From a virus (taxonomy: Duplodnaviria > Heunggongvirae > Uroviricota > Caudoviricetes): a stretch of 16,688 nt of DNA. The notes beneath the pieces are model-generated. The model had not been told where the DNA came from, made no database searches, and was given only the letters and a program-made list of their open reading frames with translations. The stretch lies in the IMG/VR virus record IMGVR_UViG_2529293040_000016. One strand, given 5' to 3'. This document shows positions 1 to 13,731 of this stretch, in pieces. Position numbers and translations under genes: made by a program. The stretch's first letter is position 1. Every line of letters begins with the position of its first letter.

Positions 1-6
1 TGAACA

Positions 7-1347
7 TTAAAAATCAGCCTGATTCGGGATCAGTTTTTGCCAGATAACTGAAACGTATTTTGCTTGGTAACGGGCGTCATCAAGTGCATTATGGCGCTCA
101 CCTTCGAATGGAATAGCCGTTCTGGCATCGAAGTCTATGGCTTTCCCCAGCTCAACGATTGTGCGTACATCGCGATCGTTGTAGTAACGCCACGGGCAGG
201 GGATCCCCTGCCGTTCGTATGAACGGCGCAAAATCGTGTTGTCGAAGTTGGCTCCATTTCCCCAGACCTGAACAAAAAATTCACCGGAGTTTTCGTCGAT
301 AAATTCCCGCAATTGTAACAGTGCATCATCTAACGGGATTTCATCGGTCATAATGGCAGATTGCGCTTCGCGTGATTGCTTAAGCCACCATTTAATGGTG
401 TCCCGATCAATGACCCCGCCAGCAGTTTCCAGATCGATAGTCTTACTAAATTCCGGTCCCATATCTCCGGTTTGCGGATCGAAAAATATTGCACCTATTG
501 AGATGATCGGGGCATCAGGATTTTTTCCCATGGTTTCAAGGTCGATCATTAGATGGTCACACGTCCTGCTGGTGGATGTGATTTCGTGATGACCGTTCAC
601 CTTAATTGAGTGATCTGCCGTCTCGCCAGTTTCATTATCGCTATCGTGATGCTGATTGCCGTCAGTGTTCTCCTTGTGTGGATGCTCAGCGCCTTCCATT
701 TCCTCCGGATCATCTTCCTGAACTTCAACCTGATACTCTTCATCGAATGTTTCCTGGTATGTTGCGTCGCCCATCACCGCGCCACAATCAGGGCAGTTGC
801 CGCCGCCGGTCTGACCGCAGGCGGTGCAGACTTTTTCCACTTCCTGTTGCGCCACTGGTTCAGGCTGTTTCGTTTCTGGCTCGTTTTGTAACGCATTTGG
901 GCTGTTTTGTTCCGCTTTCTGGCCGTTCTGTTCCGTTTCTTGCTGGTTCTGATTCACTGAATCGCGGGTTTCAATCCCCTTCACCCATTTCGGATCATTC
1001 TGGTCGCTAATCCCTGCAACAAATTCTCCGCGAGAGGCAGCAAGCAACTTATCGGCGTCAGGCTGGCTGATATTGGCTGCCTGCATAATTTTGTTTACTT
1101 CGTCAGCGGTAACTTTTACCGGCTCTGGTTGTGCGGTCGTGTCAGATGCACCAGTATTTTGTTGTGAACCTGAGTATGTACCGTTTTTGCGGGCGAAATA
1201 TTCTTCTTTCGTGATTTCAGTAGCCCCTGTAGCCAGTGCCTTATCCAGACCAGAAAGTTTGTTTGCGCGACCGTATTTTTCGCTATCCTTGTCGGTGAAG
1301 AGGAAGTAGAACGGCCCTTCACGCTCTACAGATGGTTCGACTTCCAC
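7..1347 (-). CDS. DnaQ-like (DEDDh) 3'-5' exonuclease domain protein with acidic/Gln-rich N-terminal region containing a CxxC...CxxC zinc-ribbon-like motif
   Basis: 446-aa ORF in track. C-terminal half has the three exonuclease motifs as read by eye: MIDLETMG (D-x-E), [19 protein letters not shown] (H-x-x-x-x-D). N-terminal part has [16 protein letters not shown]. Start codon is GTG at 1347, overlapping the 3' end of the upstream gene by 22 nt; no clear SD, so start is uncertain. Confidence 0.75.
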
Positions 1348-2477
1348 TTTGCATTCGGTTTTTTCGTGTCCGGAATTGCCGTTTCCACTGCATCAGTTTC
1401 TGGTACTGGCGACGAGAGAGTATCAGTTGCGCTCTGATTTCTTCCTTCATCTTCAAACACGCCCTTTGTAGTCAGGTATTCAGTAATGTATTTGTTCAGT
1501 GCCACAGGGTCTTTGTGAATGTCGATCGGACGTTCACGGACAAGGCCAAAAATAGTCTGGCGGTCGTAGCGAAGGGCATCAGGCTGTTTGCGCATTGATG
1601 CCGAGATACGCTTCCAGTCTTCGCGGTCGTTGTCGATAACTTCTTTTTTTGCCCAGCGATGGATGCTGCCGTCAATGTTTCCGGCATCCACATCACCAGG
1701 CCAGAGAGCGTAGGCCAGTTCGTCATCCAGTGTTTTCCATGTCTGCTTGTATTCGCGATGAATGGCAGCAATGACCGGGCTGATTTTTCCTGTTGAATTT
1801 TCAGTGTGCTGTTGATTGGCTCTGGCGCGGGCGAGATCAACAACAGACGTGTATTTTCCGGTTTCCTTGCGTTCACCTTCGCGACGTTTTTTCCAGATGC
1901 GCATCTCTGCCTGAATTTCGGGCCATTTGGCACCAGGCTTACATTTATGCTTAACCCACCCGATGGCATGCAGCTTAAGCTCCGGATACATGGCGTTAAC
2001 TTCTGGCATTTTCATCAACGCTTCAACGATATGTCCGTCGAATGTTGCCATGTCTTCCTGCAACAATTCCTGTGCGCTAATAACCATATCAACGGTGATG
2101 TTTTCACATGTGTCGAACTTAACCATGACAGCGTTCGGTACTTCAGGGGCCAGCTTGTCAAAAGTGACGTTCATCGGATCTGATTCAGTCTCAACCGGGA
2201 CAAAGGAAGCAGACTCCTCATCCCAGCGGTTTTCCTGCATATATTCAGCATCCCAGGAATCGAGGGCAGGGCGGGGTATGCCGGGTTTATCCTCACAGAC
2301 AATAAATTTATAAGCGCAGTCCTGAGCAGCCGGATAATGTTCCAGGAATTGCCAGTGAAATTTTGCTCGAGCACGGCGTTCGTCGCCAGCTTCAATGGCT
2401 GTGGCTACAGCCACAGCGCCTTCTTCCCTTGTTGCCAGTTCGTCAGGAATAGCAGCGCAAATAAAGACTTTACTCAT
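1326..2477 (-). CDS. Prophage early-left-operon protein of unknown function (YdfE-like by position downstream of dicB/ydfD)
   Basis: 383-aa ORF, ATG at 2477 preceded by GAGG about 9 nt upstream. Same strand and tight spacing with flanking genes. No catalytic motif recognised. Naming by synteny with Qin prophage is inference. Confidence 0.7.
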
Positions 2478-2569
2478 TTTGTTTTACCTCATTACAGATT
2501 TAAGGGTGAACAAATCCCTGCCATTGCTGGCATATAAGAATGAAACCGGATGTTTATTACGGAACTGTT

Positions 2570-2761
2570 TTAAAGACCTGCCGGGATTTCGTTATTATCC
2601 TGGTGAATAACTTTATCGACCGGGTAACAGTTACCGGGAATTTTCTGTTCGGTTGCTGCAGTCACACACTCCTGCATTGTCCTGTGAACACTGACTGCAA
2701 TATCAACTGGCTCTCCGGAAACAAGAAAAACTGTCAGAACAAGTGCAAATGCTGTATTCAT
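2570..2761 (-). CDS. ydfD: Small membrane protein, YdfD-like (63 aa, N-terminal hydrophobic helix)
   Basis: ORF track 2570..2815; the internal ATG at 2761 has AGGA 8 nt upstream and overlaps the dicB stop as ATGA. Product MNTAFALVLTVFLVSGEP... is 63 aa with a single hydrophobic segment. Size and position immediately downstream of dicB match Qin ydfD from memory. Confidence 0.6.
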   Translation of the reverse strand: MNTAFALVLTVFLVSGEPVDIAVSVHRTMQECVTAATEQKIPGNCYPVDKVIHQDNNEIPAGL

Positions 2762-2946
2762 TGCCAGCATCCTTTTTGTATCGGACGTAAACGGGCCAGC
2801 ATTGAAAGAATGCATATTTTATTTAATAGCTCCCGTTCGTGTTTTCTCTTGTTAATGGCATCTTCAGTAAATACAGGGTTACTGATAGTGACACCAATTT
2901 CAAAACAACCTTCAGACGTATTAACGTTTGGTAATAACGTTTCCAT
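2758..2946 (-). CDS. dicB: Cell division inhibitor DicB (62 aa)
   Basis: Within track ORF 2758..3051; ATG at 2946 has GAGGA 7 nt upstream. Product METLLPNVNTSEGCFEIGVTISNPVFTEDAINKRK... matches my recollection of E. coli DicB nearly residue for residue. Lies directly downstream of the dicF sequence, as in Qin. Confidence 0.8.
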   Translation of the reverse strand: METLLPNVNTSEGCFEIGVTISNPVFTEDAINKRKHERELLNKICILSMLARLRPIQKGCWQ

Positions 2947-3120
2947 TATCGCGTCCTCAACAATGAATTTTGTGATGTGGTGCCTGGTGCCTCCAGGTGA
3001 CGTTAACCAGTTAACAATTAACGCCGGATACAGAGAATCCACCCATAACACTGTTTTTGGTTTTAACTGTTCCGCGTGCGCTCAGCCGCATTCACCGCAT
3101 CACAAAATTCACTTTAAAAA

Positions 3121-3173
3121 CGGCGGCAGAGCAGTCACGGAGTAAAACTGATACCGCCAAACGTCACCAGAAA
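3121..3173 (-). ncRNA. dicF: DicF small regulatory RNA (ftsZ-targeting sRNA of Qin-type prophages)
   Basis: Reverse complement of 3121-3173 reads TTTCTGGTGACGTTTGGCGGTATCAGTTTTACTCCGTGACTGCTCTGCCGCCG, essentially identical to the DicF sequence as I remember it, followed by a U-run on the minus strand. Correct position upstream of dicB. Confidence 0.8.
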
Positions 3174-3504
3174 ATTGATAACAGAGGGCGTTGCAGCGGG
3201 GTTGTCGCTTAAGCGTATGGTCAACCTGACAACCCGGTGTCCTCAACGGGGAAGGAATAACCCCGCCATACTTACCGCCGCGCCATTTCGCGGAGTGCCA
3301 CAACCGGAAGCGCACGGTCGAACTAAATTTAACGACACCGTACAGAGAGACCAATTTCGCCGTGCGCTTTCGCGTTATGCCCTGACTTTTCAGGGACATA
3401 TCCTTTCAGTAAACTGTCAGTGCCGGATGTTCACCCGTGTCCGGCGCACGCACTCCACCTGACCCGTGGAGAACTCCTTAATTACCAACCCTCAGGAGGG
3501 TGAA

Positions 3505-3783
3505 ATGGATAAAAAGCAAATTGAGGCCCTGCAATCTATTATTGAAAAACAAGATGAAGCTATCAGGATTCTTTCATATCGCACTGATATGATACTAAAT
3601 ATGCTTTCTGCATTAACGGCTGCGCTTGGTGGTACAAAAACAAACGTATACCGCGAAGTTGTTATTCAACAGATAGATAAATTTGAAAAAACCATACCAG
3701 GTATTAATGCTCATCTTGCAGAACAAGAGAAAGACCATGCTCTTATGGCAATTTCTTCAGTAGCTCTCCCGAAAGTTGAGTAG
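3505..3783 (+). CDS. Small predicted coiled-coil protein of unknown function, convergent to the early-left operon
   Basis: Track ORF 3466..3783; the ATG at 3505 is preceded by a strong SD (AGGAGGG, 5 nt spacing). Product MDKKQIEALQSIIEKQDEAIRIL... has heptad-like composition. Its 3' end overlaps the 3' end of the minus-strand 137-aa gene. Confidence 0.55.
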   Translation: MDKKQIEALQSIIEKQDEAIRILSYRTDMILNMLSALTAALGGTKTNVYREVVIQQIDKFEKTIPGINAHLAEQEKDHALMAISSVALPKVE

Positions 3784-4156
3784 TTTTAATTGTTGTTTTG
3801 AAATAATCACTGCTTTCACATTTGAGTGATTTCATGGCAATCCAAATGCGGGCCTCTGTGCCTGCATTTGGTTCCAGTTGCTGTAGACGTTTTGCGTCTT
3901 CCAAAAGTAAGGCGATAATGTGTTTCAGCTTCTCATCATTTGCTTGATTCTTGTTTTCAGGCGAATTCTGTCCGCCGAATAGGCGCTTCTCTTCATACAG
4001 ACCTATAAAGGCACGACGCACGTTACCGGATATAGTATCGATGGTTTCTTTTTCTACGGTACTCAGGTCAAGAGTCGCCAGTTGAGAGCGAACCACATTC
4101 GATGCCATTTCCTGGAATGGTACTGGTAAATCTTTAAATTCCATCGTCAACCTCAT
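3743..4156 (-). CDS. Hypothetical protein (137 aa) in dicB-type operon
   Basis: Track ORF. Start overlaps the stop of the upstream small gene as TGATG; an alternative ATG at 4144 has GAGG upstream. No family recognised. Confidence 0.6.
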   Translation of the reverse strand: MRLTMEFKDLPVPFQEMASNVVRSQLATLDLSTVEKETIDTISGNVRRAFIGLYEEKRLFGGQNSPENKNQANDEKLKHIIALLLEDAKRLQQLEPNAGTEARIWIAMKSLKCESSDYFKTTIKTTQLSGELLKKLP

Positions 4157-4308
4157 CAGTCAGTGTTTCTGGTTAACCAGCGACGCGCGCCAGCTTCAGT
4201 TTTAAACGTTTTGCTTCTGGTATACGTCATCGCGGTAAACGTGCCGTCCTGGTTGGGGAACACGCCACATACCAGAGATTCGTTGTTGCCAAGATTGAGC
4301 ATATCCAT
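4156..4308 (-). CDS. Small protein (about 50 aa), first gene of the leftward operon (YdfA-like by size and position)
   Basis: Track ORF 4156..4389; the internal ATG at 4308 has GAGG 5 nt upstream, whereas the longer N-terminal extension has no SD. Naming is inference from synteny only. Confidence 0.45.
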   Translation of the reverse strand: MDMLNLGNNESLVCGVFPNQDGTFTAMTYTRSKTFKTEAGARRWLTRNTD

Positions 4309-4493
4309 GTTGACCTCATTTCCCCTTAACGCCGGGGTAGCGGAACAAAAACCTGCTGCATAGTTATTAAAGTTGAACCCTGCCGTCATGTTCTTACGCC
4401 TCGGGCTGGCTACTTAACCCCTGACCACTGCCTGGTAACTCGAAGTATTGCCCTGCATTCTGTGGGGCGGGGTGGGTTGGTATGAAAAGAAGG

Positions 4494-4532
4494 ATACCCA
4501 TAGGTATTTAAAAAGTAAATACCTATGGGTAA
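4494..4532. promoter_or_regulatory. 39-bp near-perfect palindrome (ATACCCATAGGTATTTA - 5 bp - TAAATACCTATGGGTA), candidate left operator/promoter region
   Basis: Inverted repeat read directly from the sequence, between the repressor 3' end (4574) and the first leftward gene (4308). Half-site CCATAGGTA recurs in the repressor/cro intergenic region. Could alternatively act as an AT-rich terminator hairpin. Confidence 0.5.
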
Positions 4533-4573
4533 ATTTTTGCGGGGTCTTAACTGGTGACTAGTTGTTTGGTGAG

Positions 4574-4992
4574 CTATGATGCGTTTTGTGCTTTCTTTTT
4601 ACGGATTTCTTCGTAGATCATATTGTAATACTGTTTTTTCTCTTCAAGAGTTTTTAATAATTTATCCGCTTCACTTTCTGGCAGTTCGTCTAAGAGATCT
4701 AAAAAAATACGTTGTCGTGGCGTTAGAACCCTTGTTTCATAACTGGAGGCTGTGTTCGTTGATGATGAAACGATACCATCCATCCATCCCCGGGGTAACC
4801 CAAAGGACTCTTCGATAATCTCCACCATATCATCAGCGATCCGTTTTTTCCCTTTTTCCCCTCTGGGTACAACATTCTTGATACATAAGAAGGCTCGCGC
4901 CCGATCTTTCTGGCCACGTTAACCGCTTTACCATCGCATTTCTCATCACGAATTTTGATGAGTTGCTGTCGTCTAAATTCATATTTGTCCAT
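4574..4992 (-). CDS. Immunity repressor (N-terminal HTH) encoded in two overlapping frames; apparent -1 frameshift at an A/G homopolymer tract
   Basis: Track ORFs 4723..4992 (HTH-like ...GKAVNVARKIGREPSYVSRML...) and 4574..4828 (protein-like C-terminus ...LTPRQRIFLDLLDELPESEADKLLKTLEE...) are on the same strand, offset by -1. Both frames are open across the minus-strand GGGGAAAAAGGGAAAAAACGG tract (plus-strand 4843-4862). The ATG at 4992 has no SD. Confidence 0.6.
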
Positions 4993-5092
4993 AGGTAAAT
5001 AATAGATGCGATTACCGCAAGGTAAACAACCTGTGGGTATTGACTTTTGTTTACCTGCGGGTGTTCTTTGCTGTGTTTACTAAGGAGTAGCT
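4993..5092. promoter_or_regulatory. Divergent promoter/operator region between repressor and cro-like gene
   Basis: Repeated half-sites CCATAGGTAAAT (4989-5000), an imperfect inverted repeat ACCGCAAGGTAAAC (5013-5026) / GTTTACCTGCGGGT (5048-5061), and a TTGACT -35-like hexamer at 5040-5045. Promoter -10 elements not confidently assigned. Confidence 0.5.
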
Positions 5093-5374
5093 ATGGAAGA
5101 ATTAAGAATATTTCTCAATTCTCTTTCGTCAGATGAACAGCGTATGTTTGCATGCGAGTGTGGTACCAGCATCGGTTATCTAAGAAAGGCATTGAGTAAA
5201 GGTCAAGTGTTAGGGGCATCGTTATGTGTCCTTATTGAGCGAGCCAGTAATGGTGAAGTTACACGTCAGCAACTAAGGCCTTTTGATTGGATGAATATTT
5301 GGCCCGAGCTGGAAGATACCAAAACGTTAACACAACCACTTTCTAGGAGCTTGATTCATGAAAATCAAGCATGA
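5093..5374 (+). CDS. Cro-like HTH regulator (YdaS/DicC-type)
   Basis: Track ORF, 93 aa, strong SD AAGGAG upstream. HTH-like segment ...CECGTSIGYLRKALSKGQ.... Divergent from the repressor, which is the classical cro position. Confidence 0.75.
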   Translation: MEELRIFLNSLSSDEQRMFACECGTSIGYLRKALSKGQVLGASLCVLIERASNGEVTRQQLRPFDWMNIWPELEDTKTLTQPLSRSLIHENQA

Positions 5375-5783
5375 ACACATCCGCATGGCGATGAATGTCT
5401 GGGCGCATCCGGACGGCGAAAAAGTGCCGGCTGCGAAAATTACCAAAGCGTATTTCGAGCTGGGAATGACGTTCCCGGAACTGTATGACGACAGCCATCC
5501 GGAAGCCCTGGCCCGTAATACCCAGAAAATTTTCCGTTGGCTGGATAAAGACACCCCTGATGCTGTTGAAAAAATGCAGGCTCTGTTACCGGCGATCGAA
5601 AAGGCGATGCCGCCTTTGCTGGTGGCCCGTATGCGCAGCCACAGTTCTGAATATTACCGTGAGATCGTCGAACGGAGGGATCGGCTGGTGAAGGATGTCG
5701 ATGATTTTGTTGCGTCAGCGGTTGTTTTGTATGACCAGATGAATCGCGGCGGCCCGGCAGGGAATGCTGTGGTGATGCACTAA
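5358..5783 (+). CDS. YdaT-like / CII-like early regulator (141 aa)
   Basis: Track ORF with TAGGAG SD 8 nt upstream. Sequence resembles Rac YdaT as I recall it; position is that of cII. Family assignment is from memory, not computed. Confidence 0.7.
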   Translation: MKIKHEHIRMAMNVWAHPDGEKVPAAKITKAYFELGMTFPELYDDSHPEALARNTQKIFRWLDKDTPDAVEKMQALLPAIEKAMPPLLVARMRSHSSEYYREIVERRDRLVKDVDDFVASAVVLYDQMNRGGPAGNAVVMH

Positions 5784-5805
5784 AAGCACGGTGTTCGGGG
5801 GTTTT

Positions 5806-6768
5806 ATGAGCAGCAAGCTTCATGGTCTTGTCTGGGAAGGGTGCGCCTTCACCGGCATGATCTTATCCAGGGTGGCGGTTATGGCCCGTCTTGCAGACTA
5901 CAGCAATGACGAGGGCGTGTCATGGCCTGCCATTGAAACTATCCGGCGTCAGATCGGTGCAAGAAGTGAATCCACAGTGAAATCGGCTATTGCAGAACTG
6001 GCGAAAGAGGGCTGGCTGACGAAGGAAGAGCGTAAGGTCGGTGGGCGTAATGTAAGCAATATCTATCGGCTTAATGTGGAAAAACTCGAAGCAGCTGCGG
6101 CGGCGGCGCGTGAGTCATATAAACCGAAAAGAAAAATTAGCCCGGCAAAAAATGACCCGTTAACAGTTGACCCGTCAAATATTGACCCCTCAACGGTTGA
6201 CCCGTCAAATTTTGATGGATCAACTGTTGATAAAAAACTGCCGATTAGGGGGGCGATGATTGACCCCGATCCGTCAGTATTAAAACCTGATCCGTCAGAT
6301 AAAAGATCTTCTTGTCCGGACGCTTCGCAACCGGACCCGCAGACGGCTGAACAGGATTTTTTAACCCGACACCCTGACGCGGTTGTGTTCAGTGCGAAAA
6401 AACGCCAGTGGGGAAGTCAGGAAGATTTGGTGTGCGCACAGTGGATCTGGGGACGAATCGTGAGTCTTTACGAGCAGGCGGCCAGCTATGATGGCGAGAT
6501 CGCTAGACCGAAAGAACCCAACTGGACAGCATGGGCCAATGACGTTCGCACAATGCGGATGCTGGATGGCAGAACTCACAGACAAATTTGTGAAATGTTT
6601 GGGCGTCTCCAGCGGGATTCGTTCTGGGTAAAAAACATCATGAGTCCGGCAAAACTCCGGGAAAAATGGGATGAACTGGTTATCCGCCTGGGGCGTTCGC
6701 CTGCGCAGCGTTGCGTGAATCACATTTCTGAACCGGACACTGAAATTCCGCCGGGCTTCAGGGGGTAA
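5806..6768 (+). CDS. Replication initiator (O-like) with N-terminal winged-HTH domain and in-gene iterons
   Basis: Track ORF 5791..6768; the ATG at 5806 follows a G-rich SD. The N-terminus (...LSRVAVMARLADYSNDEGVSWPAIETIRRQIGARSESTVKSAIAELAKEGWL) is typical of phage replication-initiator HTH domains. The central DP(S/L)(T/N)(V/I) peptide repeats are encoded by tandem DNA iterons. Confidence 0.75.
   Translation: MSSKLHGLVWEGCAFTGMILSRVAVMARLADYSNDEGVSWPAIETIRRQIGARSESTVKSAIAELAKEGWLTKEERKVGGRNVSNIYRLNVEKLEAAAAAARESYKPKRKISPAKNDPLTVDPSNIDPSTVDPSNFDGSTVDKKLPIRGAMIDPDPSVLKPDPSDKRSSCPDASQPDPQTAEQDFLTRHPDAVVFSAKKRQWGSQEDLVCAQWIWGRIVSLYEQAASYDGEIARPKEPNWTAWANDVRTMRMLDGRTHRQICEMFGRLQRDSFWVKNIMSPAKLREKWDELVIRLGRSPAQRCVNHISEPDTEIPPGFRG
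6153..6242 (+). repeat. Iteron array: about six tandem 15-bp repeats (TGACCCGTCAAATNT-like), probable replication origin inside the initiator gene
   Basis: Direct repeats with 15-bp period starting at 6153, 6168, 6183, 6198, 6213 and 6228, the last two degenerate and followed by an A-rich stretch. Further related copies lie at about 6260 and 6288. Same architecture as ori-lambda within gene O. Confidence 0.65.
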
Positions 6769-6808
6769 GTGTTAATTTCTGGTCATGAGGTAATTTTCAG
6801 GAGGGCTT

Positions 6809-7231
6809 GTGGCAAAAGTTTTTACACAAGAAGAGCGGGAAAAAATTAAAGGGCAGGTTGTTGAACTCGTACGCCAGAGTGGGCGCGAGACGTTACGACA
6901 ACTGGAAACTAAAACTGGGGCAACAAGATATCTGATGAGCGTTCTGGCCAGAGAGCTGGTTGCCAGTGGCGATGTATACAACTCTGGTTACGGGTTATTC
7001 CCGTCTGAACAGGCGCGTAAGGACTGGCAAAATGCCCGTAAAAAGCTCTCAAGGGCAAAGCTGAAGAAACCATCTGCGGTTGATCCGGACCTTATCTGGT
7101 CATTACCTGACGGAGAAATACGTCGCTACGACAGGCGTCAGAACATAATCTGTCGCGAGTGCCGGAAGAGCGAAGCTATGCAGCGCGTACTGGCGTTTTA
7201 TCAGGGGAATTTTGAGGAGGTGGTGCGGTGA
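6809..7231 (+). CDS. Hypothetical protein (140 aa)
   Basis: Track ORF with GTG start and AGGAGG SD at 6794-6799. No Walker A motif, so not a DnaC/P-type helicase loader. Function unknown. Confidence 0.65.
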   Translation: MAKVFTQEEREKIKGQVVELVRQSGRETLRQLETKTGATRYLMSVLARELVASGDVYNSGYGLFPSEQARKDWQNARKKLSRAKLKKPSAVDPDLIWSLPDGEIRRYDRRQNIICRECRKSEAMQRVLAFYQGNFEEVVR

Positions 7232-7474
7232 GTGAATCAAAATGCCAGGTTAATGGCAACAAGATAGAACCATGTGCAGCACTGGCAAAGTCCCTTGAGC
7301 GTGATGCTGAATACACGATGCGAAAAGGTCTGCTGATATACAAAATCTGAAATGAGAGTTTAACTCGCGGTCCTGATTTTGTGATGTTGCGTTCCGGTGA
7401 ATTTTCTAAATTACCAGTTCGGGTTTCATTTTGTCCGTTCTGTGGTGAAAGTCTGAAAACGTGGGAGAACAGAA

Positions 7475-7786
7475 ATGAATGAAATTAAAGAAATACCAGT
7501 AGTACGTGATGAATATGGCTGCTGGACGCATCCTGAATATGAAAAATTCTGTGACGGTCGGGAATATATTTCAACGGAAGAGTTTAACGCCTGGATGGAG
7601 GAAAATAATCTTCAATACGGCCTCTGCTTCAGAGATGAAGGATGTGCTGACCTTGATGCGTGTGATGCTGATATTTCTGCATGGGAACCGGAACGACCAG
7701 AGGGCAATGGATGGTTTATTGGTTCAATACATGACACCGAAGATGGCCCGGTTTGTGTATGGCTGAGAAATAAGGTCGAAGCATAA
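7475..7786 (+). CDS. Hypothetical acidic Cys-rich phage protein (103 aa), nin-region type
   Basis: Track ORF. Codon usage and GC match the prophage backbone. No family assigned. Confidence 0.65.
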   Translation: MNEIKEIPVVRDEYGCWTHPEYEKFCDGREYISTEEFNAWMEENNLQYGLCFRDEGCADLDACDADISAWEPERPEGNGWFIGSIHDTEDGPVCVWLRNKVEA

Positions 7787-7918
7787 AGGCTATAAACCGA
7801 CTAACAACTAAATACTGAAGATTTAAATCAGAAACGATTTTTATTAAATCCTTAACCGGAGGGATTCCTGCACCCTCAAATCATCAGGAGGCCGCCCGAA
7901 AGGGCGGTGGAGATAATA

Positions 7919-8413
7919 ATGGGAATAACTAAAGAACGATTGTTGGAAATAGCAAACCTTAGTGATTGGGCATTAAGTGATGAGAGAATTGTTTCTCCTC
8001 ATGCTTATGAGTCAGTTACAAGTATAGAAATAACAACAATGGCTAGAATGCTGCTTGGTTATTTCAAAATAGAAAATAAAAAACAGATGGATAGTAATGT
8101 TGATATATGTGAGATTTTAGACGATTGGGGGGCTTGGGTTGTGGCTGGTAATAGTTCTATTGATTGGCAGGAAATAGCTGATAAATATAAAAATGTTGTT
8201 CCTCATGGTAAAAAATCACGTCGTCAGTGCAGCAATGATGAAGGGCGAATTATTGACATTAGTATCCTTAGGTTAGAAAGATATAAGCAACAAGAATATG
8301 AGTTAATTGTTGCTCATTTCGTGATTGGTTTATCTCTTCGTGCTATTGCAAAGCAACAAGGATGTTCAGATGGAACAATTCGTAAAAGATTGCAAAAAGC
8401 CTTAGGTTTTTGA
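7919..8413 (+). CDS. HTH regulator with sigma-70 region-4 / LuxR-like C-terminal helix-turn-helix (164 aa), encoded in the low-GC island
   Basis: Track ORF 7907..8413; the ATG at 7919 has GGAG 6 nt upstream. C-terminus ...EYELIVAHFVIGLSLRAIAKQQGCSDGTIRKRLQKALGF resembles sigma region 4 / LuxR HTH. Markedly AT-rich. Convergent with the three-gene cassette. Confidence 0.65.
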   Translation: MGITKERLLEIANLSDWALSDERIVSPHAYESVTSIEITTMARMLLGYFKIENKKQMDSNVDICEILDDWGAWVVAGNSSIDWQEIADKYKNVVPHGKKSRRQCSNDEGRIIDISILRLERYKQQEYELIVAHFVIGLSLRAIAKQQGCSDGTIRKRLQKALGF

Positions 8414-8435
8414 CTGGATATATAGCAATTACCAG

Positions 8436-9077
8436 TTAAGAGTCAGCGGTTTTTTTACCAGTGTAATGGTATAAGGATACTCCCATGTGTCTTACATGAT
8501 ATGGAAGCGCTGTTGCTGGATGCTTTGTGATACTCTTAAAGCGGAGGGGAGAGCCTTCCGCTTCAATTTCTGCGTCCGAAACGGTCGTAGAGAAAAATTC
8601 TTTCCATTCATTGAATTTTACTGCTGATTTGTCAGACTTTATATAAATTAGAATTCCTCCATGATCGTCACGTGACGTACCCGTGCCGTAACGTTCGGTT
8701 AGCTGAATCCAGCCATTATGAATAGATTTGGGGCCTCTCCATAATTTTGCTTCACCGATCCATTCGAATTTTCCGAATTGATGTTTAACTAATAAATCAA
8801 CGTGACCGCCATGTTGAGTATCATGTTCAACATCATAAAACCTACCTTTCAGGAAATTTTTGATCGACGCTGTTAGCTCGTCCTCTCCCCACTTAGCATC
8901 TTGATAGAAGTGTTTGTCATTTTCTAAATTCTGAATAGCGTCGTCTAAATCTTCATAGAGTTGCTTTACAAAAATATTTTTGTCTGCAGCTAATTTTCTT
9001 TGAACCATTCCCCTAAATTCAGGATCCATTCTAATTAATGATTGAAGGTCTGCAGTACAGATGTTTACATCACTCAT
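8436..9077 (-). CDS. Cassette gene 3: putative PD-(D/E)xK-fold nuclease (213 aa)
   Basis: Track ORF 8436..9140; the ATG at 9077 has GGAGAG upstream and lies 4 nt after the stop of the preceding gene. Motif GGHVDLLVK ... FEWIGEAK fits the hhhD ... hhE-x-K spacing of restriction-endonuclease-like nucleases. Assignment is inference from motif only. Confidence 0.6.
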   Translation of the reverse strand: MSDVNICTADLQSLIRMDPEFRGMVQRKLAADKNIFVKQLYEDLDDAIQNLENDKHFYQDAKWGEDELTASIKNFLKGRFYDVEHDTQHGGHVDLLVKHQFGKFEWIGEAKLWRGPKSIHNGWIQLTERYGTGTSRDDHGGILIYIKSDKSAVKFNEWKEFFSTTVSDAEIEAEGSPLRFKSITKHPATALPYHVRHMGVSLYHYTGKKTADS

Positions 9078-9498
9078 GCAGACTCTCCAAAAGACTCGAA
9101 GGAGTAAAGTATGGATAAAGATACTGGCTAAAATTATCAACCAATTCGCCAGTTTCTGGATGGTAAAAACTTCCTGTGTCTAAAGCATAGGAAATAAGAT
9201 CATCTTCAACTGGTATTGGTTCTTCCGTTAAATTATCAATGTATTGAAAATGCATATCCAATAGATGTGCTTTATAGCTAGATAAATAATCAGTTGCTTT
9301 TATTAGCAGGATATAGTCATCTTTCGTATCAGTTAGATAGGTTAAACCATTGATAAGGGTTTTGTATGTAAAGTGATTGATATTTTTAGCATCTTTACTA
9401 ACCAGAAAAAGAAAAAGATCACGACACACACTGCGAACAGGATCATTAAAATCCTGCTCTATTTGCGTGATAATGTCGTGATATATACTCTTTTTCAT
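9070..9498 (-). CDS. Cassette gene 2: acidic hypothetical protein (142 aa)
   Basis: Track ORF. Its ATG overlaps the stop of the upstream ORF as ATGA, indicating translational coupling. No recognisable domain. Confidence 0.6.
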   Translation of the reverse strand: MKKSIYHDIITQIEQDFNDPVRSVCRDLFLFLVSKDAKNINHFTYKTLINGLTYLTDTKDDYILLIKATDYLSSYKAHLLDMHFQYIDNLTEEPIPVEDDLISYALDTGSFYHPETGELVDNFSQYLYPYFTPSSLLESLHE

Positions 9499-10585
9499 TT
9501 ATGGCCTGATGATCTCGCTCTTCTTTTCTCTTCACAGGACTTAACAGAATCCAATATTTTTTCAACAATAAATATAATCGAATCAATGTTGTTACAGTTC
9601 TTCGCAATTGCTTCATGCAACCTAATTCTAGGATTATCAAGCATTGTCCTTTTTCCTGGTAATATTAACTCTACTGATAAAATATGTGAAGAACTTTGTG
9701 GTAAATCCCAAATTTTTCCCAACTTAAACTTTGTCAATATTGGGCTTGCGGACTCTCCACTATGATGGTAAACATCTTGACGCAAACACTTTTGACTTGG
9801 TTTGAGTTTTAAAGAACTTGTATTGCCATCTGAGGTGATAAAAGATACATGAGAAATTCTGCCATCTACTTTTTCGTAAAGATCTTGTATTGAACCAAAT
9901 AATTCAAGAGGATTGTTTAAAATAACGCCAGCTTCTTTTTTATAAATTTAGCCACAAGGTATTGTTGAGGCTGTGATTCACTTCTTGGAAGGATAGATAA
10001 ATCAATCGTAAGAATTAATATTTTTTCTGCAGGCATTAGCATGATGGTATTAAAGCATTGCGTGACTTGGCGTGTTTTGCATTTTATTTCTCCACCATTA
10101 GCACGTAATTCCATACCCGCATCGCTAAGATGTGTTGGGTCAAGCTCTATCACTTCAGTGTAATACGCTTTGGATAAAAAAACAGCAGTGTCAATTTGTT
10201 TATCACGAATGATATCTTGACGTAGTTCAGCAAAATGCAGCTCAGTATCAGCAACTAACAGCTCCTCTCTGGATAAAGGAATTGGGTATTTTTCTGAGAA
10301 GGGGCTATTGTCCTTTTTCTGATTTGTGAAAATTGTTTGTAATTTTGCTACGTCTTCATCGGTGATTCTATAAATAGAAAGTAATCGATTCCCGCTAAAA
10401 ATTAAACCTTTCCAGAAATCGTCGATTCTGTCTTTTAGGTCGGGATTATGCTGAACTACACTATTTACACGTTCAATAAAAAGGGGTAATCCTTGGGCCG
10501 TTACACCCAGTGATGAACCAAGAAGCTTACGGGTGTTGCGCCAGCCAAAGCGTGAATTGATGTTTTTTACTGTTTGCTCAAGCAT
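9495..10585 (-). CDS. Cassette gene 1: protein of unknown function encoded in two frames (zero-frame product 222 aa; -1 fusion product about 363 aa)
   Basis: Track ORFs 9917..10591 and 9495..9785; the ATG at 10585 has AAGGAAG 6 nt upstream. The frame of the downstream ORF is open all the way up to 9947 and is -1 relative to the upstream ORF. The overlap contains A_AAA_AAG in the zero frame (plus-strand 9935-9941). Confidence 0.55.
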
Positions 10586-10726
10586 TAACACTTCCTTAAT
10601 TTTCCCTTAACAATTTAGGGTGCTAAACTTTTTTGCGCAGTTTACATAAAAAAATAGTGCGTACGCAAAAACTATCTAACATGATGAGCTTTAACCGGGA
10701 AATTTGTATATGTTGTGAGCATAAAG

Positions 10727-10755
10727 TTGGCTGAGAAATCTAAAACGGGTAGAAT
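10727..10755 (+). promoter_or_regulatory. Candidate hok/mok mRNA promoter (TTGGCT - 17 bp - TAGAAT)
   Basis: Hexamers read from the sequence at 10727-10732 and 10750-10755. A transcript from here to the terminator at about 11181 would be about 420 nt, typical of hok mRNAs. Not verified. Confidence 0.35.
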
Positions 10756-10874
10756 GACTGCGGGTGCTTGAGGCTATCTGTCTCAGGCATGAACACCAAA
10801 AGGCAGATAGAGAAAAGCCCCAGTTAACATTACGCGTCCGGCAAGACGCTTAACATTAATCTGAGGCCATATCT

Positions 10875-11087
10875 ATGCTCTACACACGTAGGTTAGCCTC
10901 TTACGTGCCGAAAGGCAAGGAGAAGCAGGCTATGAAGCAGCAAAAGGCGATGTTAATCGCCCTGATCGTCATCTGTTTAACCGTCATAATGACGGCACTG
11001 GTAACGAGGAAAGACCTCTGCGAGGTACGAATCCGAACCGGCCAGACGGAGGTCGCTGTCTTCACAGCTTACGAACCTGAGGAGTAA
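10875..11087 (+). CDS. mok: Mok-like regulatory ORF (in-frame N-terminal extension of hok)
   Basis: 70-aa track ORF containing the hok ORF in the same frame, as in chromosomal mokC/hokC loci (recalled). Confidence 0.55.
   Translation: MLYTRRLASYVPKGKEKQAMKQQKAMLIALIVICLTVIMTALVTRKDLCEVRIRTGQTEVAVFTAYEPEE
10932..11087 (+). CDS. hok: Hok/Gef-family type I toxin (51 aa)
   Basis: MKQQKAMLIALIVICLTVIMTALVTRKDLCEVRIRTGQTEVAVFTAYEPEE is a clear Hok-family sequence (TM helix plus conserved ...TRKDLCEV...RTGQTEVAVF...). AAGGAG SD 9 nt upstream of the ATG. Confidence 0.85.
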   Translation: MKQQKAMLIALIVICLTVIMTALVTRKDLCEVRIRTGQTEVAVFTAYEPEE

Positions 11088-11154
11088 GAGACCAGGCGGG
11101 GGAGAATCCCTCGCCACCTCTGATGTGTCAGGCATCCTCAACGCACCCGCACTT

Positions 11155-11181
11155 AACCCGCTTCGGCGGGTTTTGTTTTTT
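11155..11181 (+). terminator. Rho-independent terminator downstream of hok
   Basis: Stem CCCGC (11157-11161) / GCGGG (11166-11170) with TTCG loop, followed by TTTTGTTTTTT. Confidence 0.6.
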
Positions 11182-11253
11182 CCTGGCATTCTGGTTTACA
11201 ATTCGCACGCCAGCCTGAACAACTGGCACCTGCTGCGCCAGCAGAGACAACCG

Positions 11254-11532
11254 ATGGCGCACGATACCAAATTACACAATTCTGATGATTCTGCCGTCTT
11301 TGCCAGCAGGCACGGGCGGCGTTCCCGCACTTTCAAATCTGACTGGTTCCAGCATCCCCCATGCACTGAAGAACAGGCCGAGTGGCTAATTCAGTGCTAC
11401 CGCAGACACGGATACGAGATTAAGAAAGCCCTCAGCCTCGATTATCGTCACTGGATAATCTCCGTCAGGCTTCCTTACTCCGAACGACCACCGCGTCCGT
11501 CCCGCACATTCCAGCAACGCATCTGGAGGTAA
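11254..11532 (+). CDS. Hypothetical protein (92 aa), in the position occupied by rem in Qin
   Basis: Track ORF 11125..11532 trimmed to the first ATG beyond the hok terminator. Weak SD. Function unknown. Confidence 0.45.
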   Translation: MAHDTKLHNSDDSAVFASRHGRRSRTFKSDWFQHPPCTEEQAEWLIQCYRRHGYEIKKALSLDYRHWIISVRLPYSERPPRPSRTFQQRIWR

Positions 11533-11533
11533 C

Positions 11534-12583
11534 GTGCGGGTATTACTTCGACCTGTTCTGGTACCGGAACTCGGGCTGGTGATCGTTAAGCCGGGCCGTG
11601 AATCCATGCCGGTATTCCACAATACCCGGGTACTGGTGGAGCCGGAACCGAAAAGCATGCGTAATCTGCCGTCCGGGGTCGTTCCTGCCGTTCGCCAGCC
11701 GCTGGCGGAGGATAAATCATTACTGCCATTTTTCAGCGACGAACGAGTGATTCGTGCTGCTGGTGGCGCTGGCGCATTGTCTGACTGGTTACTGCGCCAT
11801 GTTAAATCCTGCCAGTGGCCACACGGTGATTATCACCACAGTGAAACCGTCATTCACCGTTATGGTACCGGCGCAATGGTGTTGTGCTGGCACTGCGACA
11901 ACCAGCTGCGCGACCAGACCTCCGAATCACTCGGGCAACTTGCTCACCAAAACCTGTCAGCATGGATGATTGACGTCATACGCCATGCAATGAATGGCTC
12001 GCAGGAACGGGAATTATCGCTGGCTGAATTATCCTGGTGGGCGGTCCGCAATCAGGTGGCGGACGCGCTACCGGAAGCGGTATTACGTCGTTCGCTGGGG
12101 TTGCGTGCGGAAAAAATCCGCTCAATGTACCGTGAAAGCGACATCGTACCGGGAGAGCAGACCGCCACCAGCATACTGAAACAGCGCACAAAAAATCTTG
12201 CGCCGCTGCCTCACGCCCACCAGCAACAGAACCCACCACAGGAAAAGACGGTGGTCAGCATTGCCGTTGATCCTGAGTCTCCGGAATCTTTCATGAAACG
12301 ACCTAAACGTCGCCGCTGGGTTAACGAGAAATACACACGCTGGGTGAAGACACAGCCGTGTGCGTGTTGTGGTAAGCCAGCCGACGATCCCCATCACCTG
12401 ATTGGTCATGGTCAGGGCGGAATGGGGACAAAATCTCACGATATTTTCACGCTACCGCTGTGTCGGGAGCATCACAACGAGCTTCATGCGGATCCGCTGA
12501 CGTTCGAAGAAAAGCATGGTTCTCAGGTTGATTTAATTTTTCGTTTTCTTGATCACGCCTTTGCAACTGGCGTGCTTGGGTAA
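11534..12583 (+). CDS. ydfU: YdfU-like prophage protein (DUF968-type) with C-terminal Cys/His-rich HNH-like motif
   Basis: 349-aa track ORF with GTG start. C-terminal CACCGKPADDPHHLIGHGQGGMGTKSHDIFTLPLCREHHNELH resembles a zinc-binding HNH-type motif. Position upstream of rusA/Q matches Qin ydfU. Name from memory. Confidence 0.65.
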   Translation: MRVLLRPVLVPELGLVIVKPGRESMPVFHNTRVLVEPEPKSMRNLPSGVVPAVRQPLAEDKSLLPFFSDERVIRAAGGAGALSDWLLRHVKSCQWPHGDYHHSETVIHRYGTGAMVLCWHCDNQLRDQTSESLGQLAHQNLSAWMIDVIRHAMNGSQERELSLAELSWWAVRNQVADALPEAVLRRSLGLRAEKIRSMYRESDIVPGEQTATSILKQRTKNLAPLPHAHQQQNPPQEKTVVSIAVDPESPESFMKRPKRRRWVNEKYTRWVKTQPCACCGKPADDPHHLIGHGQGGMGTKSHDIFTLPLCREHHNELHADPLTFEEKHGSQVDLIFRFLDHAFATGVLG

Positions 12584-12595
12584 AAGAGGTGACTG

Positions 12596-12955
12596 ATGCT
12601 CATAGATTTGGTTTTACCTTACCCGCCGACGGTGAACACTTACTGGCGACGCCGTGGCAGCACATATTTTGTATCAAAAGTCGGTGAGCGTTATCGCCGT
12701 GATGTGGCGCTTATTGTTCGCCAGCAGCAACTGAAATTAAACCTGTCCGGAAGGCCGGCAATAGAAATTATTGCAGAGCCACCGGATAAGCGCCGTCGTG
12801 ACCTGGACAATATCCTGAAGGCACCACTGGATGTACTGACGCATGCGGGGCTGCTCATAGACGACGAGCAGTTTGATGAAATTAATATTGTGCGCGGTCA
12901 GCTTGTTCCTGGTGGGCGGTTGGGGATAAAAATCACAGAACTGGAGTATGCATGA
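12596..12955 (+). CDS. rusA: Holliday-junction resolvase RusA
   Basis: 119 aa. Conserved RusA signatures read by eye (N-terminal LPYPPTVNTYW, catalytic region PDKRRRDLDN, C-terminal GGRLGIKITE) align with E. coli RusA from memory. AGAGGTG SD. Stop overlaps the Q start as ATGA. Confidence 0.85.
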   Translation: MLIDLVLPYPPTVNTYWRRRGSTYFVSKVGERYRRDVALIVRQQQLKLNLSGRPAIEIIAEPPDKRRRDLDNILKAPLDVLTHAGLLIDDEQFDEINIVRGQLVPGGRLGIKITELEYA

Positions 12956-13641
12956 ATAACCAGTATTTACAGTTTGTTCGTGAGCAACTCATGATTGCCA
13001 CCGCCGATTTGAGTGGATCAACAAAAGGGCAGCTTGAGGCCTGGCAGGAGAATGCCATGTTTGATACAGGGCGTTACAGGCGTAAAAAAATCCGGTACCG
13101 CGATGAAGTGACTGGAAAAATGATAACGCGGGATAATCCACCAATCCCGGGAAAGCAATCGCTGGCGAAGGGGGCGTCAATTCCTCTCGTCAGTCCGGTT
13201 GAGTTTTTGACATCATCGTGGCGGCGGGCTGTTCTGTCTCTTGAAGAACATCATAAAGCCTGGTTGTTGTGGTGTTACAGCGGGAGTATTTGTTGGGAAT
13301 ATCAGATCGCGATAACACAGTGGGCGTGGAATGAATTTAATACTCAATCCGGTACCAGAAAAATTGCTGGGAAAACGCAGGAACGCCTGAAAAAATTAAT
13401 CTGGCTGGCGGCGCAGGCAGTAAAAGCAGAACTTTTTGGTGGGGAAGGTTATGAATATCAGGAGCTGGCATTACTGGCGGGAGTGACAACTAAAAACTGG
13501 TCCAAAACATTTACTCGTCACTGGGTTGCAATGAAACACATTTTTCACCGACTGGATAGTGAGGCTTTATTATTTGTAATGAGAACACGTTCAAAACAAA
13601 AGGCGGCATTTTCAAAGCAAAGTGTTGCAAAAGTAGATTGA
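12952..13641 (+). CDS. Late-gene antiterminator Q-like protein (229 aa)
   Basis: Track ORF immediately followed by a pR'-like promoter and strong intrinsic terminator, and preceded by rusA, which is the canonical nin-Q-pR'-tR' arrangement. Assignment is mainly by context. Confidence 0.65.
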   Translation: MNNQYLQFVREQLMIATADLSGSTKGQLEAWQENAMFDTGRYRRKKIRYRDEVTGKMITRDNPPIPGKQSLAKGASIPLVSPVEFLTSSWRRAVLSLEEHHKAWLLWCYSGSICWEYQIAITQWAWNEFNTQSGTRKIAGKTQERLKKLIWLAAQAVKAELFGGEGYEYQELALLAGVTTKNWSKTFTRHWVAMKHIFHRLDSEALLFVMRTRSKQKAAFSKQSVAKVD

Positions 13642-13653
13642 AAGGCATATATT
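13625..13653 (+). promoter_or_regulatory. pR'-like late promoter (TTGCAA - 17 bp - TATATT) with downstream qut-like region
   Basis: Hexamers at 13625-13630 and 13648-13653, overlapping the 3' end of the Q-like gene. Followed by a short structured leader and a terminator. Confidence 0.5.
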
Positions 13654-13706
13654 TCATGCAAATCTGATATTTTGCCGATTTTGTACGTGATGGCAAAATC
13701 AAACAA

Positions 13707-13731
13707 AACCCGCCCACAAGCGGGTTTTTTT
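13707..13731 (+). terminator. tR'-like rho-independent terminator
   Basis: Stem CCCGC (13709-13713) / GCGGG (13720-13724) with a 6-nt loop, followed by TTTTTTT (13725-13731). Confidence 0.75.

Follow-up and report, generated by a model that had tools for sequence, protein, structure and literature searches.

An intact dicF-dicB-ydfD cassette in the probable leftward early operon of a lambdoid prophage with a frameshifted repressor-like gene

The dicBF operon of the Qin prophage in Escherichia coli K-12 (ydfABC-dicF-dicB-ydfDE) is under the control of DicA and DicC, and loss of DicA function in K-12 leads to filamentation. Cassettes of this kind are already known, ordinary and widespread: they are present in most E. 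coli genomes, and intact copies of dicF, dicB and ydfD are found in thousands of genomes as well as in complete phages. [quoted passage not shown] Pairing of DicF with ftsZ has been described, as has the wide occurrence of the dicF locus in lambdoid prophages other than Qin (PMC5069750), and YdfD is an inhibitor of IspG (PMC8835842). Among complete temperate phages (for example Escherichia phage Tritos, vB_EcoS-640R1 and vB_EcoM-606R7) the counterpart of our whole region 2570-3490 is matched at 93-95%, and in Tritos, which has its own CI, Cro and Rha and keeps small ydfB/ydfC-like ORFs, the three genes are annotated as dicF, dicB and ydfD. The immunity regions of these cassette-bearing complete phages differ from the one described below.

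The DNA analysed here (the window, 16,688 nucleotides of a viral contig, IMG/VR record IMGVR_UViG_2529293040_000016) carries at 2570-3173 a module that homology confirms as an intact DicF-DicB-YdfD unit in the canonical order and with exact coordinates, and the dicF sequence, 62-aa DicB and 63-aa YdfD-like protein called by the first-pass annotation are borne out by full-length Rfam and Pfam matches and by 96% nucleotide identity to Qin. Aligned to the K-12 operon, the stretch from 3490 down to 1711 is 96.1% identical and runs from 21 nt after ydfC through dicF, dicB, ydfD and ydfE; chance origin is excluded, given the E-values and this level of identity over 1.78 kb. The order and strand logic are those of Qin, i.e., repressor, ydfA, leader, dicF, dicB, ydfD and exonuclease. 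An even closer relative is the ompW prophage of EPEC O127:H6 strain E2348/69 (NC_011601, 1.4275-1.449 Mb), which has the same genes in the same order at 99.4-99.6% identity over 13.8 kb (99.4% over the first 8.4 kb of the window) and which has int, xis and ompW to its left, in a part that corresponds to DNA beyond the left edge of the window; the dicF-dicB region is also shared with the "PPompW" prophages of STEC (93.6-98%). Departures from E2348/69 comprise four 1-nt deletions, a patch of 27 substitutions at 2328-2442, and the interval 13804-16502, where E2348/69 has a copy of ISEc13. Thus, we are highly confident that the region is the distal part of a leftward early (PL-type) operon of a lambdoid prophage, that a near-identical prophage adjoins ompW in E2348/69, and that the region carries the known dicBF cassette. 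One further copy of a textbook prophage cassette has little weight by itself.

The gene for DicF, a 53-nt Hfq-dependent antisense sRNA, occupies 3121-3173 on the minus strand and has a terminator hairpin of its own, after which comes a run of five U. The whole RF00039 model of Rfam (positions 1-52 of 52) aligns to 3121-3172, scoring 72.5 bits where 48 is the gathering threshold (E = 1.3e-14), and alignment with MG1655 dicF, the check proposed for this stretch, gives 52 identical positions out of 53, both base-pairing regions included. The sole change, C to G at the last base, lies 3' of the terminator stem and is common to E2348/69. All positions of the Rfam consensus stem are paired in the terminator hairpin (3121-3159) with no non-canonical pair flagged, and UUUUU follows directly at 3116-3120; the hairpin, a two-tier stem with an 11-nt apical loop, was not listed by a simple terminator scan limited to loops of 3-8 nt. 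The duplex with ftsZ is predicted to be retained, at -38.9 kcal/mol with K-12 ftsZ (positions -29 to +25), the host's own ftsZ lying outside the window. As a point against our reading, this energy beats only 479 of 500 shuffles, and 21 of the 500 do as well. The gene is unannotated in the closest RefSeq genomes, which is worth recording. A 96-aa minus-strand ORF (3109-3399) overlapping dicF was rejected as coding, given its RNA-type compensatory changes and the lack of a K-12 annotation. Some phage records place a "hypothetical protein" on this ORF region. None of the Pas sRNAs of E2348/69 lies at the dicF locus, PasA and PasC being near RusA/TerB/DUF1627 and PasD near Q and the lysis genes.

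Downstream, after a spacer of 174 nt that has the same length in K-12, dicB (2758-2946, minus strand) encodes a 62-aa cell-division inhibitor that matches Pfam PF05358 over the whole profile (1-62 of 62; 127.4 bits, cut-off 27) and K-12 DicB at 55 of 62 residues (89%). It is followed by the ydfD homologue (2570-2761, minus strand), encoding a 63-aa DUF1482 protein of the single-pass membrane lysis type (Pfam PF07358, 88 bits against a cut-off of 25) with a hydrophobic N-terminal segment and 59 of 63 residues identical to K-12 YdfD. Relative to Qin, DicB therefore differs at 7 residues and YdfD at 4, and each exact protein sequence is found on at least 1000 contigs. The 89% identity, together with the literature, suggests that DicB would inhibit FtsZ ring assembly in a MinC- and ZipA-dependent manner, and for both proteins we infer the phenotypes from homology to their K-12 Qin counterparts. 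The stop codon of dicB and the start of ydfD overlap by 4 nt (ATGA, 2758-2761), as in K-12. Several such junctions had been announced for the module, and this is the only one inside 2570-3173; the other one meant was probably the junction of the ydfA-like gene with orf133 near 4156, which reads TGATG only with a 137-aa start, whereas RefSeq annotates the 133-aa start at 4144. The gene downstream of ydfD, that of a large 3'-5' exonuclease (7-2477, minus strand), is homologous to the K-12 ydfE pseudogene. In Qin it is truncated by IS2, in E2348/69 it is intact (823 aa), and here it is full-length except for a 1-nt deletion near 1366 that splits the gene.

Upstream of dicF, the stretch 3176-3742 had been described as roughly 570 nt of untranslated, GC-rich DNA. 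This holds for 3176-3490, a conserved leader homologous to Qin with a GC content of 53-56%, but not for 3500-3740, which is AT-rich (GC 0.35-0.37) and contains a gene for a 92-aa protein. The distal Qin-type leader (3305-3490, minus strand) shares about 92-96% of its nucleotides with the region between ydfC and dicF in K-12, and 3100-3490 as a whole is 92.4% identical, compared with 96.1% for the entire block 3490-1711. Its minimum-energy fold contains a long imperfect duplex of 3429-3458 with 3290-3323. The 5' end of the 190-nt species of K-12 maps to about 3310, inside this predicted duplex, where we place a putative RNase III site in a region about 92-96% identical to Qin. In the linker (3174-3189, minus strand) the sequence GUUAUCAA|UUUCUGG, identical to that of K-12, would be cut by RNase E at 3174|3173 to make the 5' end of DicF. 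Both processing sites foreseen for the leader are putative, placed solely by homology to K-12, and are confined to its proximal 140 nt.

Farther upstream the window departs from Qin, where ydfB and ydfC take the place of orf133 and the convergent orf92. The latter (3505-3783, plus strand; WP_000358771.1 in E2348/69) encodes a conserved hypothetical 92-aa protein antisense to the operon (PHROG 18692, E = 5.9e-63); an AGGAGG ribosome-binding site precedes it, all three minus-strand frames of the region contain stops, and the ORF is preserved in Salmonella homologues that are 71-82% identical. These more distant protein homologues were used in place of a codon-position test, for which the compared loci offered only 4 variable sites. 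The hypothetical early-left gene orf133 (3743-4144, minus strand; PHROG 1363, E = 9.5e-45; WP_001339605.1) lies in a region for which the alignment with Qin detected no homology. The first gene of the operon is the ydfA homologue (4156-4308, minus strand), a 153-nt CDS for a 50-aa DUF1391 protein (Pfam PF07151, 97 bits) with 88.8% nucleotide identity to K-12 ydfA. Lying between the presumed promoter and dicF, orf92 is absent from Qin and could hinder read-through, which counts against the operon reading.

The immunity region has a PL/OL layout, with a repressor gene upstream on the same strand, a divergent cro-like gene and related operator-like repeats at both gaps. A perfect 37-bp palindrome at 4495-4531, the candidate OL, holds two operator-like TACCYRYRGGTA sites, and the candidate OR at 5028-5063, between the repressor-like and cro-like genes, holds two more with one mismatch each at a spacing of 24 bp; related inverted repeats were detected as well. 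In the window the TACCYRYRGGTA motif has four matches against 0.18 expected, all of them at these two places. The palindrome, with its 16-bp stem, also resembles a bidirectional terminator just after the repressor gene. A sigma-70 scan of 4309-4573 returned no site reaching 9 of 12 matches, and a hand-picked candidate (TTTACT-17-TATCCT, about 4516-4488), which overlaps the second operator-like site, has 8 of 12; this lack of a promoter at threshold counts against our reading. The repressor-like gene (4574-4992, minus strand) is in the position of cI or dicA, and its product, named phage repressor CI by the sources, matches PHROG 5736 "transcriptional regulator" (E = 6e-70). A Pfam search gave this protein no domain, and it is unrelated to DicA. 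The operator-like sites also differ from those of Qin, and the proposed control over the operon draws on gene position and the operator-like repeats, a further point against our reading. On the other side of the candidate OR, the cro/YdaS-like regulator (5093-5374, plus strand) matches PHROG 35 "transcriptional repressor" (E = 4.8e-23) and, weakly, Pfam YdaS; this gene and the cII/YdaT-like gene are intact.

The original proposal of a module that is normally under an immunity repressor is right in its core, and by analogy with Qin promoter position, cleavage, expression and phenotypes can be predicted as follows. Once the repressor is lifted, transcription would start in the interval between the repressor-like gene and the ydfA homologue, which holds the palindrome with its two operator-like sites, and would proceed through the ydfA-like gene, orf133, the leader, dicF, dicB, ydfD and the exonuclease gene, with xis and int following in E2348/69. 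RNase III would cut the long leader duplex near 3310 to give a precursor of about 190 nt, from which cleavage by RNase E, with the hairpin at 3121-3159 and its U tract setting the 3' end, would yield the 53-nt DicF. With Hfq, DicF may then pair across the ftsZ ribosome-binding site and block FtsZ synthesis. Read-through transcripts would give DicB, which would direct MinC to the septum to depolymerise FtsZ rings and could also block ManYZ-dependent phage entry, as well as YdfD, expected to act as a membrane lysis protein inhibiting IspG.

A PL/OL operon would be expected to have a functional repressor; here the 139-aa ORF, intact in E2348/69 (WP_000362153.1), is split because an A7 run of its coding strand has shrunk to A6 (seen as T6 at 4844-4849). 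The first-pass annotation had noted an apparent disruption, and the split itself is there, but it may be an assembly artefact because every one of the four indels that separate the window from E2348/69 over 13.8 kb (near 1366, 4844-4849, 8406 and 9935) is the loss of one T from the plus strand, in three cases within a run of T6-T7, and disrupts a reading frame (those affected being the exonuclease, the repressor, a Q-family antiterminator and a 364-aa protein). The prophage would then in reality have an intact 139-aa repressor, lost through under-calling of a homopolymer, and its module would be silent as in any ordinary lysogen, an explanation to which we give slightly less than an even chance. 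Scattered substitutions relative to E2348/69 number only about 22, the A6 allele is rare (one viral contig against at least 120 with A7), and the exact 89-aa product occurs on one contig compared with at least 1000 for the intact protein. Moreover, an intact toxic dicBF module without a repressor should be selected against. However, two other sequences, the complete genome MLI104K2 and an unrelated prophage contig (L134), also have this A7 tract shortened, so that it may be a real mutational hotspot, and an 84-aa ORF for the C-terminal fragment is called in dozens of genomes. Four runs that are now A7 in the aligned region are unchanged and only two of the five T7 runs of E2348/69 differ, a pattern that is not statistically decisive; the homopolymer census does not separate artefact from real mutation.

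We regard it as a possibility of somewhat lower standing that the frameshift is real and the prophage decaying, the module being held by a homoimmune repressor in trans, by Cro/YdaS-like repression of the leftward promoter (an anti-immune state), or by some repressor restored through rare slippage on the A run. In genomes with the region, related places number 2 at the median and 9 at the maximum, so that immunity in trans is plausible, and the intact repressor allele is very common. The cro-like and cII/YdaT-like genes are intact, the switching of DicA/DicC in K-12 is bistable (PMC10448788), and the frameshifts in other genes of the same prophage fit decay. Nevertheless, a second repressor copy would lie outside the 16.7-kb window, sequencing error fits the indel pattern equally well, and dicF, dicB and ydfD still seem to be under purifying selection, contrary to what one would expect of a constitutively de-repressed module. 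The neighbouring frameshifts need a check at the level of reads before a de-repressed toxic module is inferred.

We consider it very improbable that the module is a transcriptionally dead remnant whose integrity reflects recent acquisition only, its promoter lost or its transcription stopped either at the palindrome/terminator (4495-4531) or through interference from the convergent orf92. The absence of a consensus-grade promoter upstream of the ydfA-like gene, the terminator-like palindrome with its 16-bp stem upstream and the antisense gene inside the operon would all fit such a remnant. Yet this very architecture, orf92 and palindrome included, is 99% conserved in E2348/69 and many other genomes, and the three cassette genes stay intact across the thousands of genomes and the complete phages mentioned above. 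The K-12 module, which shares 96% identity with ours from 3490 onward (leader, dicF, dicB and ydfD), is expressed both in stationary phase and when de-repressed, although the promoter and upstream genes there are those of Qin itself.

Between the RNase III region and the linker, 3190-3304 (minus strand; 115 nt) forms a four-helix-junction RNA element that makes up the 5' body of the 190-nt DicF precursor. Its helices are P0 (3304-3297/3197-3190), H1 (3293-3289/3282-3278), H2 (3265-3261/3251-3247) and H3 (3235-3228/3206-3199). In a covariation analysis 89.8% of cells were paired, compared with 38-62% when partners were slid, eight pairs had changed on both sides and none of 500 shuffles reached the score; after re-alignment to the model 92.5% were paired. 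A permissive Rfam search of 2500-4600 (Rfam 15, E ≤ 1) returned only DicF and a sub-threshold STnc100, and no family for the leader element. A tRNA-like reading was dropped, ARAGORN having found no tRNA or tmRNA in the window, and a pseudoknot between the H2 loop and J2-3 (UCCUU:GAGGA, CAUU:AAUG) was no better than shuffled tails. The minimum-energy fold hints at antiterminator pairing between the conserved GGCGGUAAG junction and the terminator's 3' arm, but this is speculation, as a GGUGG/CCACC variant (L037) lacks matching covariation.

The element also occurs in phages without a detectable dicF and in P1 and P7, whose ban operon has a leader with a "dicF-like region" that shares it; identity there is 76-81%, and P0, H2 and H3 show compensatory changes. 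In these two phages a repressor-controlled promoter lies immediately before the element, and a hairpin with a U tract comes after it. This hairpin is unrelated to that of DicF, the Rfam model finds no DicF in P7 at the gathering threshold or in the P1 leader at E ≤ 1, and the place of dicB is taken by tRNA genes and ban. A stretch of the HK022 record (21000-29000), beyond which the PL region may lie, has neither a put annotation nor a model match. Throughout the lambdoid and P1-type phages that have it, the element is always early in a repressor-controlled operon and a terminator hairpin always follows within 10-45 nt; the hairpins differ between phages, most of them keeping their ends (UUUGGCGG...CCGCC plus U5) with different interiors, and variants of the hairpin are present in an Stx2c phage and in pPE4. 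Tentatively, and with rather more doubt than belief, we propose that 3190-3304 may be more than a passive leader, namely a constant structured platform with an exchangeable seed hairpin of which DicF is one allele, the cassette in turn being combined with one or another toxic gene downstream (dicB or kil). Such a platform might guide processing by the two RNases, or control read-through at the sRNA terminator in the manner of a put-like element or an attenuator, or be set free as a stable RNA in its own right; the putative cuts at about 3310 (RNase III) and 3174 (RNase E) would excise almost exactly this element. If true, a platform with swappable hairpins would account for the way in which temperate phages vary the targets of their early-operon sRNAs and would offer a means to study how transcription gets beyond the DicF terminator into dicB.

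The dicF-dicB spacer (2947-3120, minus strand), which is the 5' UTR of dicB, resembles STnc100 (RF02076), an sRNA of Salmonella and E. coli prophages that is related to PasD and whose matches are common in lambdoid prophages (bioRxiv 10.64898/2026.05.13.724894). The match at 2914-3123 covers the full model and shares the UCACCNGGAGGCACCNGGCACCA core, with 35.3 bits against a gathering score of 47 (E = 1.7e-5); by Rfam's criterion the spacer is not a member of this family, and unlike here, the PasD loci sit near Q and lysis genes. A stretch homologous to the spacer lies in front of kil in both Shigella phage 75/02 Stx and pPE4, and in front of terB in P7.

Rfam scanning of the whole window at gathering threshold returned two families, one of which was DicF at 3121-3172 on the minus strand (full-model match, 72.5 bits against a gathering threshold of 48, E 1.3e-14). 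Aligned to the reference of E. coli K-12 MG1655, the 53-nt dicF gene (3121-3173, minus) is identical at 52 of 53 positions, and the sole difference, a C to G change at the last nucleotide, is common to the EPEC strain E2348/69, which carries the nearest-relative prophage. On the same strand follow a 62-aa ORF (2758-2946) that matches Pfam DicB end-to-end with 127 bits and a 63-aa ydfD homologue (2570-2761) with an 88-bit match to the Pfam family DUF1482/YdfD; these share 55/62 and 59/63 residues with their K-12 counterparts, and at least 1000 public contigs carry each exact protein sequence. As in K-12, the dicB stop overlaps the start of ydfD in an ATGA (2758-2761). The first-pass annotation, which had read an intact, canonically ordered DicF-DicB-YdfD module with ATGA overlap from the sequence alone, is confirmed in its observation, with exact coordinates, and the core of its interpretation is right; its account of the upstream stretch needs correcting and that of the repressor needs caution.

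From 3490 to 1711 the minus strand is 96.1% identical to Qin, the cryptic K-12 prophage, in a match that starts 21 nt past the ydfC stop and spans the intergenic leader, dicF, dicB, ydfD and ydfE, and a second Qin-matching block (4346-4177, 88.8%) corresponds to ydfA. Identity to the E2348/69 prophage, which adjoins ompW and has int and xis to its left, is higher still (99.43% over 1-8400 and 99.6% over 1-13804). Related DNA occurs in 4773 of 5426 complete E. coli genomes, at a median of two places per genome, and also in complete phages, e.g., the temperate phage Tritos, whose annotation names dicF, dicB and ydfD. Given this wide occurrence, and since the literature (PMC5069750) describes the dicBF locus as widespread among lambdoid prophages, both Qin-like and other, at times in multiple copies, the module is already known.

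The roughly 570-nt stretch upstream of dicF had been described as untranslated and GC-rich, a description that holds for 3176-3490 (GC 0.53-0.56, homologous to the K-12 ydfC-dicF intergenic region) but not for 3500-3740, which is AT-rich (0.35-0.37), has no homology to Qin and, while closed by stops in all three minus-strand frames, contains most of a gene on the plus strand. This gene, orf92 (3505-3783, plus, 92 aa), has an AGGAGG ribosome-binding site, matches PHROG 18692 over its full length, is annotated in E2348/69 and is carried by at least 1000 contigs; in its Salmonella homologues (71-82% identity) the frame is maintained and the core is strongly conserved. Thus orf92 is a convergent gene within the operon, lying between the leader and orf133, a hypothetical early-left gene with which it partly overlaps (3743-3783); Qin, by contrast, has no such convergent gene in its operon. 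No consensus promoter was found just upstream of orf92. An antisense promoter-like site (TTAACA-16-GAGAAT, 9/12) is present in the dicF-dicB spacer at 3011-3038 (plus), and a transcript starting there would cross dicF and the leader in antisense towards orf92; matches of this kind are not above chance in the region (4 found, 5.3 expected).

Work in K-12 (PMC10448788) attributed a 190-nt species to RNase III and the 5' end of the 53-nt DicF to RNase E, and found no internal promoter. Carried over by alignment, the RNase III end would map to ca. 3310, which the leader's minimum-energy fold places within a long, imperfectly paired duplex (3429-3458 with 3290-3323), and the RNase E cut is predicted by homology between 3174 and 3173, where the surrounding sequence is identical to K-12. 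With integrity, order and sequence identity as observed here, and with all later steps taken over by analogy, the K-12 mechanism most likely applies to the window. De-repression would thus yield a polycistronic leftward transcript, from which RNase III, RNase E and the terminator would release the 53-nt DicF, which together with Hfq would block ftsZ translation; the window DicF is computed to keep an extended duplex with ftsZ from -29 to +25 (-38.9 kcal/mol). DicB would act through MinC on FtsZ rings and would also block ManYZ-dependent phage entry, and YdfD would inhibit IspG and cause lysis, as reported for YdfD (PMC8835842).

Just upstream of dicF, the leader contains a conserved 115-nt four-helix-junction RNA (3190-3304, minus), folded as a closing helix P0 and three hairpins, which is also present in comparison loci L003, L005 and L007-L012 and in the viral loci L013-L132. 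When 24 diverse copies were aligned with plain MAFFT, 89.8% of cells were paired, compared with 38-62% for slid partners; both sides changed in eight pairs, and the covariation score was reached by none of 500 shuffles. In a model-based re-alignment of 38 copies, pairing stood at 92.5%. Compensatory changes are seen in P0 (GUUGUGGC/GCUGCAAC and GUUGUGGU/ACCACAAC), H2 (CGGGG/CCCCG, CUGGG/CCCAG and CAGGUG/CACCUG) and H3 (UGUCA/UGACA and UGCCA/UGGCA). The element matched no Rfam 15 family at E<=1, and the RNase III (~3310) and RNase E (3174) cuts placed by homology would excise it almost exactly. It recurs without detectable dicF in Stx2c phages, a cdtI phage, Salmonella F1055 and pPE4, and the Rfam DicF model gives no hit to the downstream hairpins of the Stx2c phage, F1055 and pPE4 even at E<=0.1. 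P1 and P7 carry it too; the model did not find DicF in P7 at gathering threshold or in the P1 leader at E<=1, and the P1 record places a 'dicF-like region' label directly after the C1-controlled ban promoter. We tentatively raise the possibility, doubtful as it is, that this is a distinct functional element, so far undescribed, which might serve as a maturation platform, in read-through control or as a second RNA.

Every copy of the element is followed, within the next 10-45 nt, by a terminator hairpin with a U tract. At least ten hairpin sequence types exist, canonical DicF being by far the commonest, and most have the common ends UUUGGCGG...CCGCC, the exceptions being the P1/P7 and F1055 types. 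These types are shuffled against the downstream gene, i.e., dicB and ydfD, kil, or neither. The dicF-dicB spacer itself (2914-3123, minus) gives a full-model match to STnc100 in Rfam, at 35.3 bits under the threshold of 47, and its homologues lie before kil in Shigella phage 75/02 Stx and pPE4 and before terB in P7, which points to a 5' UTR module that small toxic early genes have in common. STnc100 has been linked to the PasD sRNAs of E2348/69 (2026 preprint), whose loci lie elsewhere in prophages. The four-helix leader RNA, with its covariation support and exchangeable hairpins, is the only part that merits follow-up.

Upstream of the ydfA homologue, and 43 nt past the stop of the repressor gene, lies a perfect 37-bp palindrome (4495-4531) made up of two copies of a 12-bp quasi-palindrome, TACCYRYRGGTA. 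With one mismatch allowed, this motif has four matches in the window (0.18 expected), the remaining two lying in the gap that separates the repressor-like from the cro-like gene (5028-5063) and none outside these two regulatory gaps, which is the OL/OR layout that control of the leftward dicF operon by the immunity protein would predict. The palindrome also resembles a bidirectional terminator. No consensus-grade promoter was found in the regulatory DNA upstream of the ydfA homologue; hand inspection gave a candidate, TTTACT-17-TATCCT, overlapping the second operator-like site.

At the cI/DicA position, divergent from a Cro/YdaS-like gene, E2348/69 encodes a 139-aa protein (PHROG 5736 'transcriptional regulator', E 6e-70; named phage repressor CI in the sources) in which neither a Pfam domain nor an S24 peptidase domain was found. 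In the window, loss of one A from an A7 run (T6 at 4844-4849, plus strand) breaks this gene into ORFs of 89 and 84 aa, the disruption proposed in the first-pass annotation; it may be a sequencing artefact or a true mutation. Only four indels separate the window from E2348/69 over 13.8 kb, all of them single-T deletions (~1366, 4844-4849, ~8406 and ~9935; three in T6-T7 runs, one TT to T), and each disrupts one reading frame (823-aa exonuclease, repressor, Q-family antiterminator and a 364-aa hypothetical protein), a pattern that suggests homopolymer sequencing error or prophage decay. The A6 allele occurs in one viral contig versus at least 120 with A7, and the exact 89-aa product in one contig only; the complete genome MLI104K2 and an unrelated prophage contig also have this tract shortened, and dozens of genomes carry an ORF call for the C-terminal fragment, as would be expected if the run were a real mutational hotspot. 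The homopolymer census does not tell sequencing artefact from true mutation.

Elsewhere, 27 substitutions relative to E2348/69 fall within a 115-nt cluster (2328-2442) at the exonuclease gene's 5' end, the rest of the region being almost identical; MLI104K2 agrees with the window here, and a small patch of recombination is the probable explanation. The two prophages diverge downstream of the Q gene (13804-16502 against 16308-20459 of the E2348/69 locus), E2348/69 having tRNA-Ile, tRNA-Arg and an ISEc13 copy in this part, whereas ARAGORN found no tRNA in the window. A Sok antisense RNA (RF01794, 117 bits; 10762-10937, plus) lies beside a hokD-type toxin gene (ORF ending at 11087), as annotated in E2348/69, and the two form a type I toxin-antitoxin pair of the same prophage.
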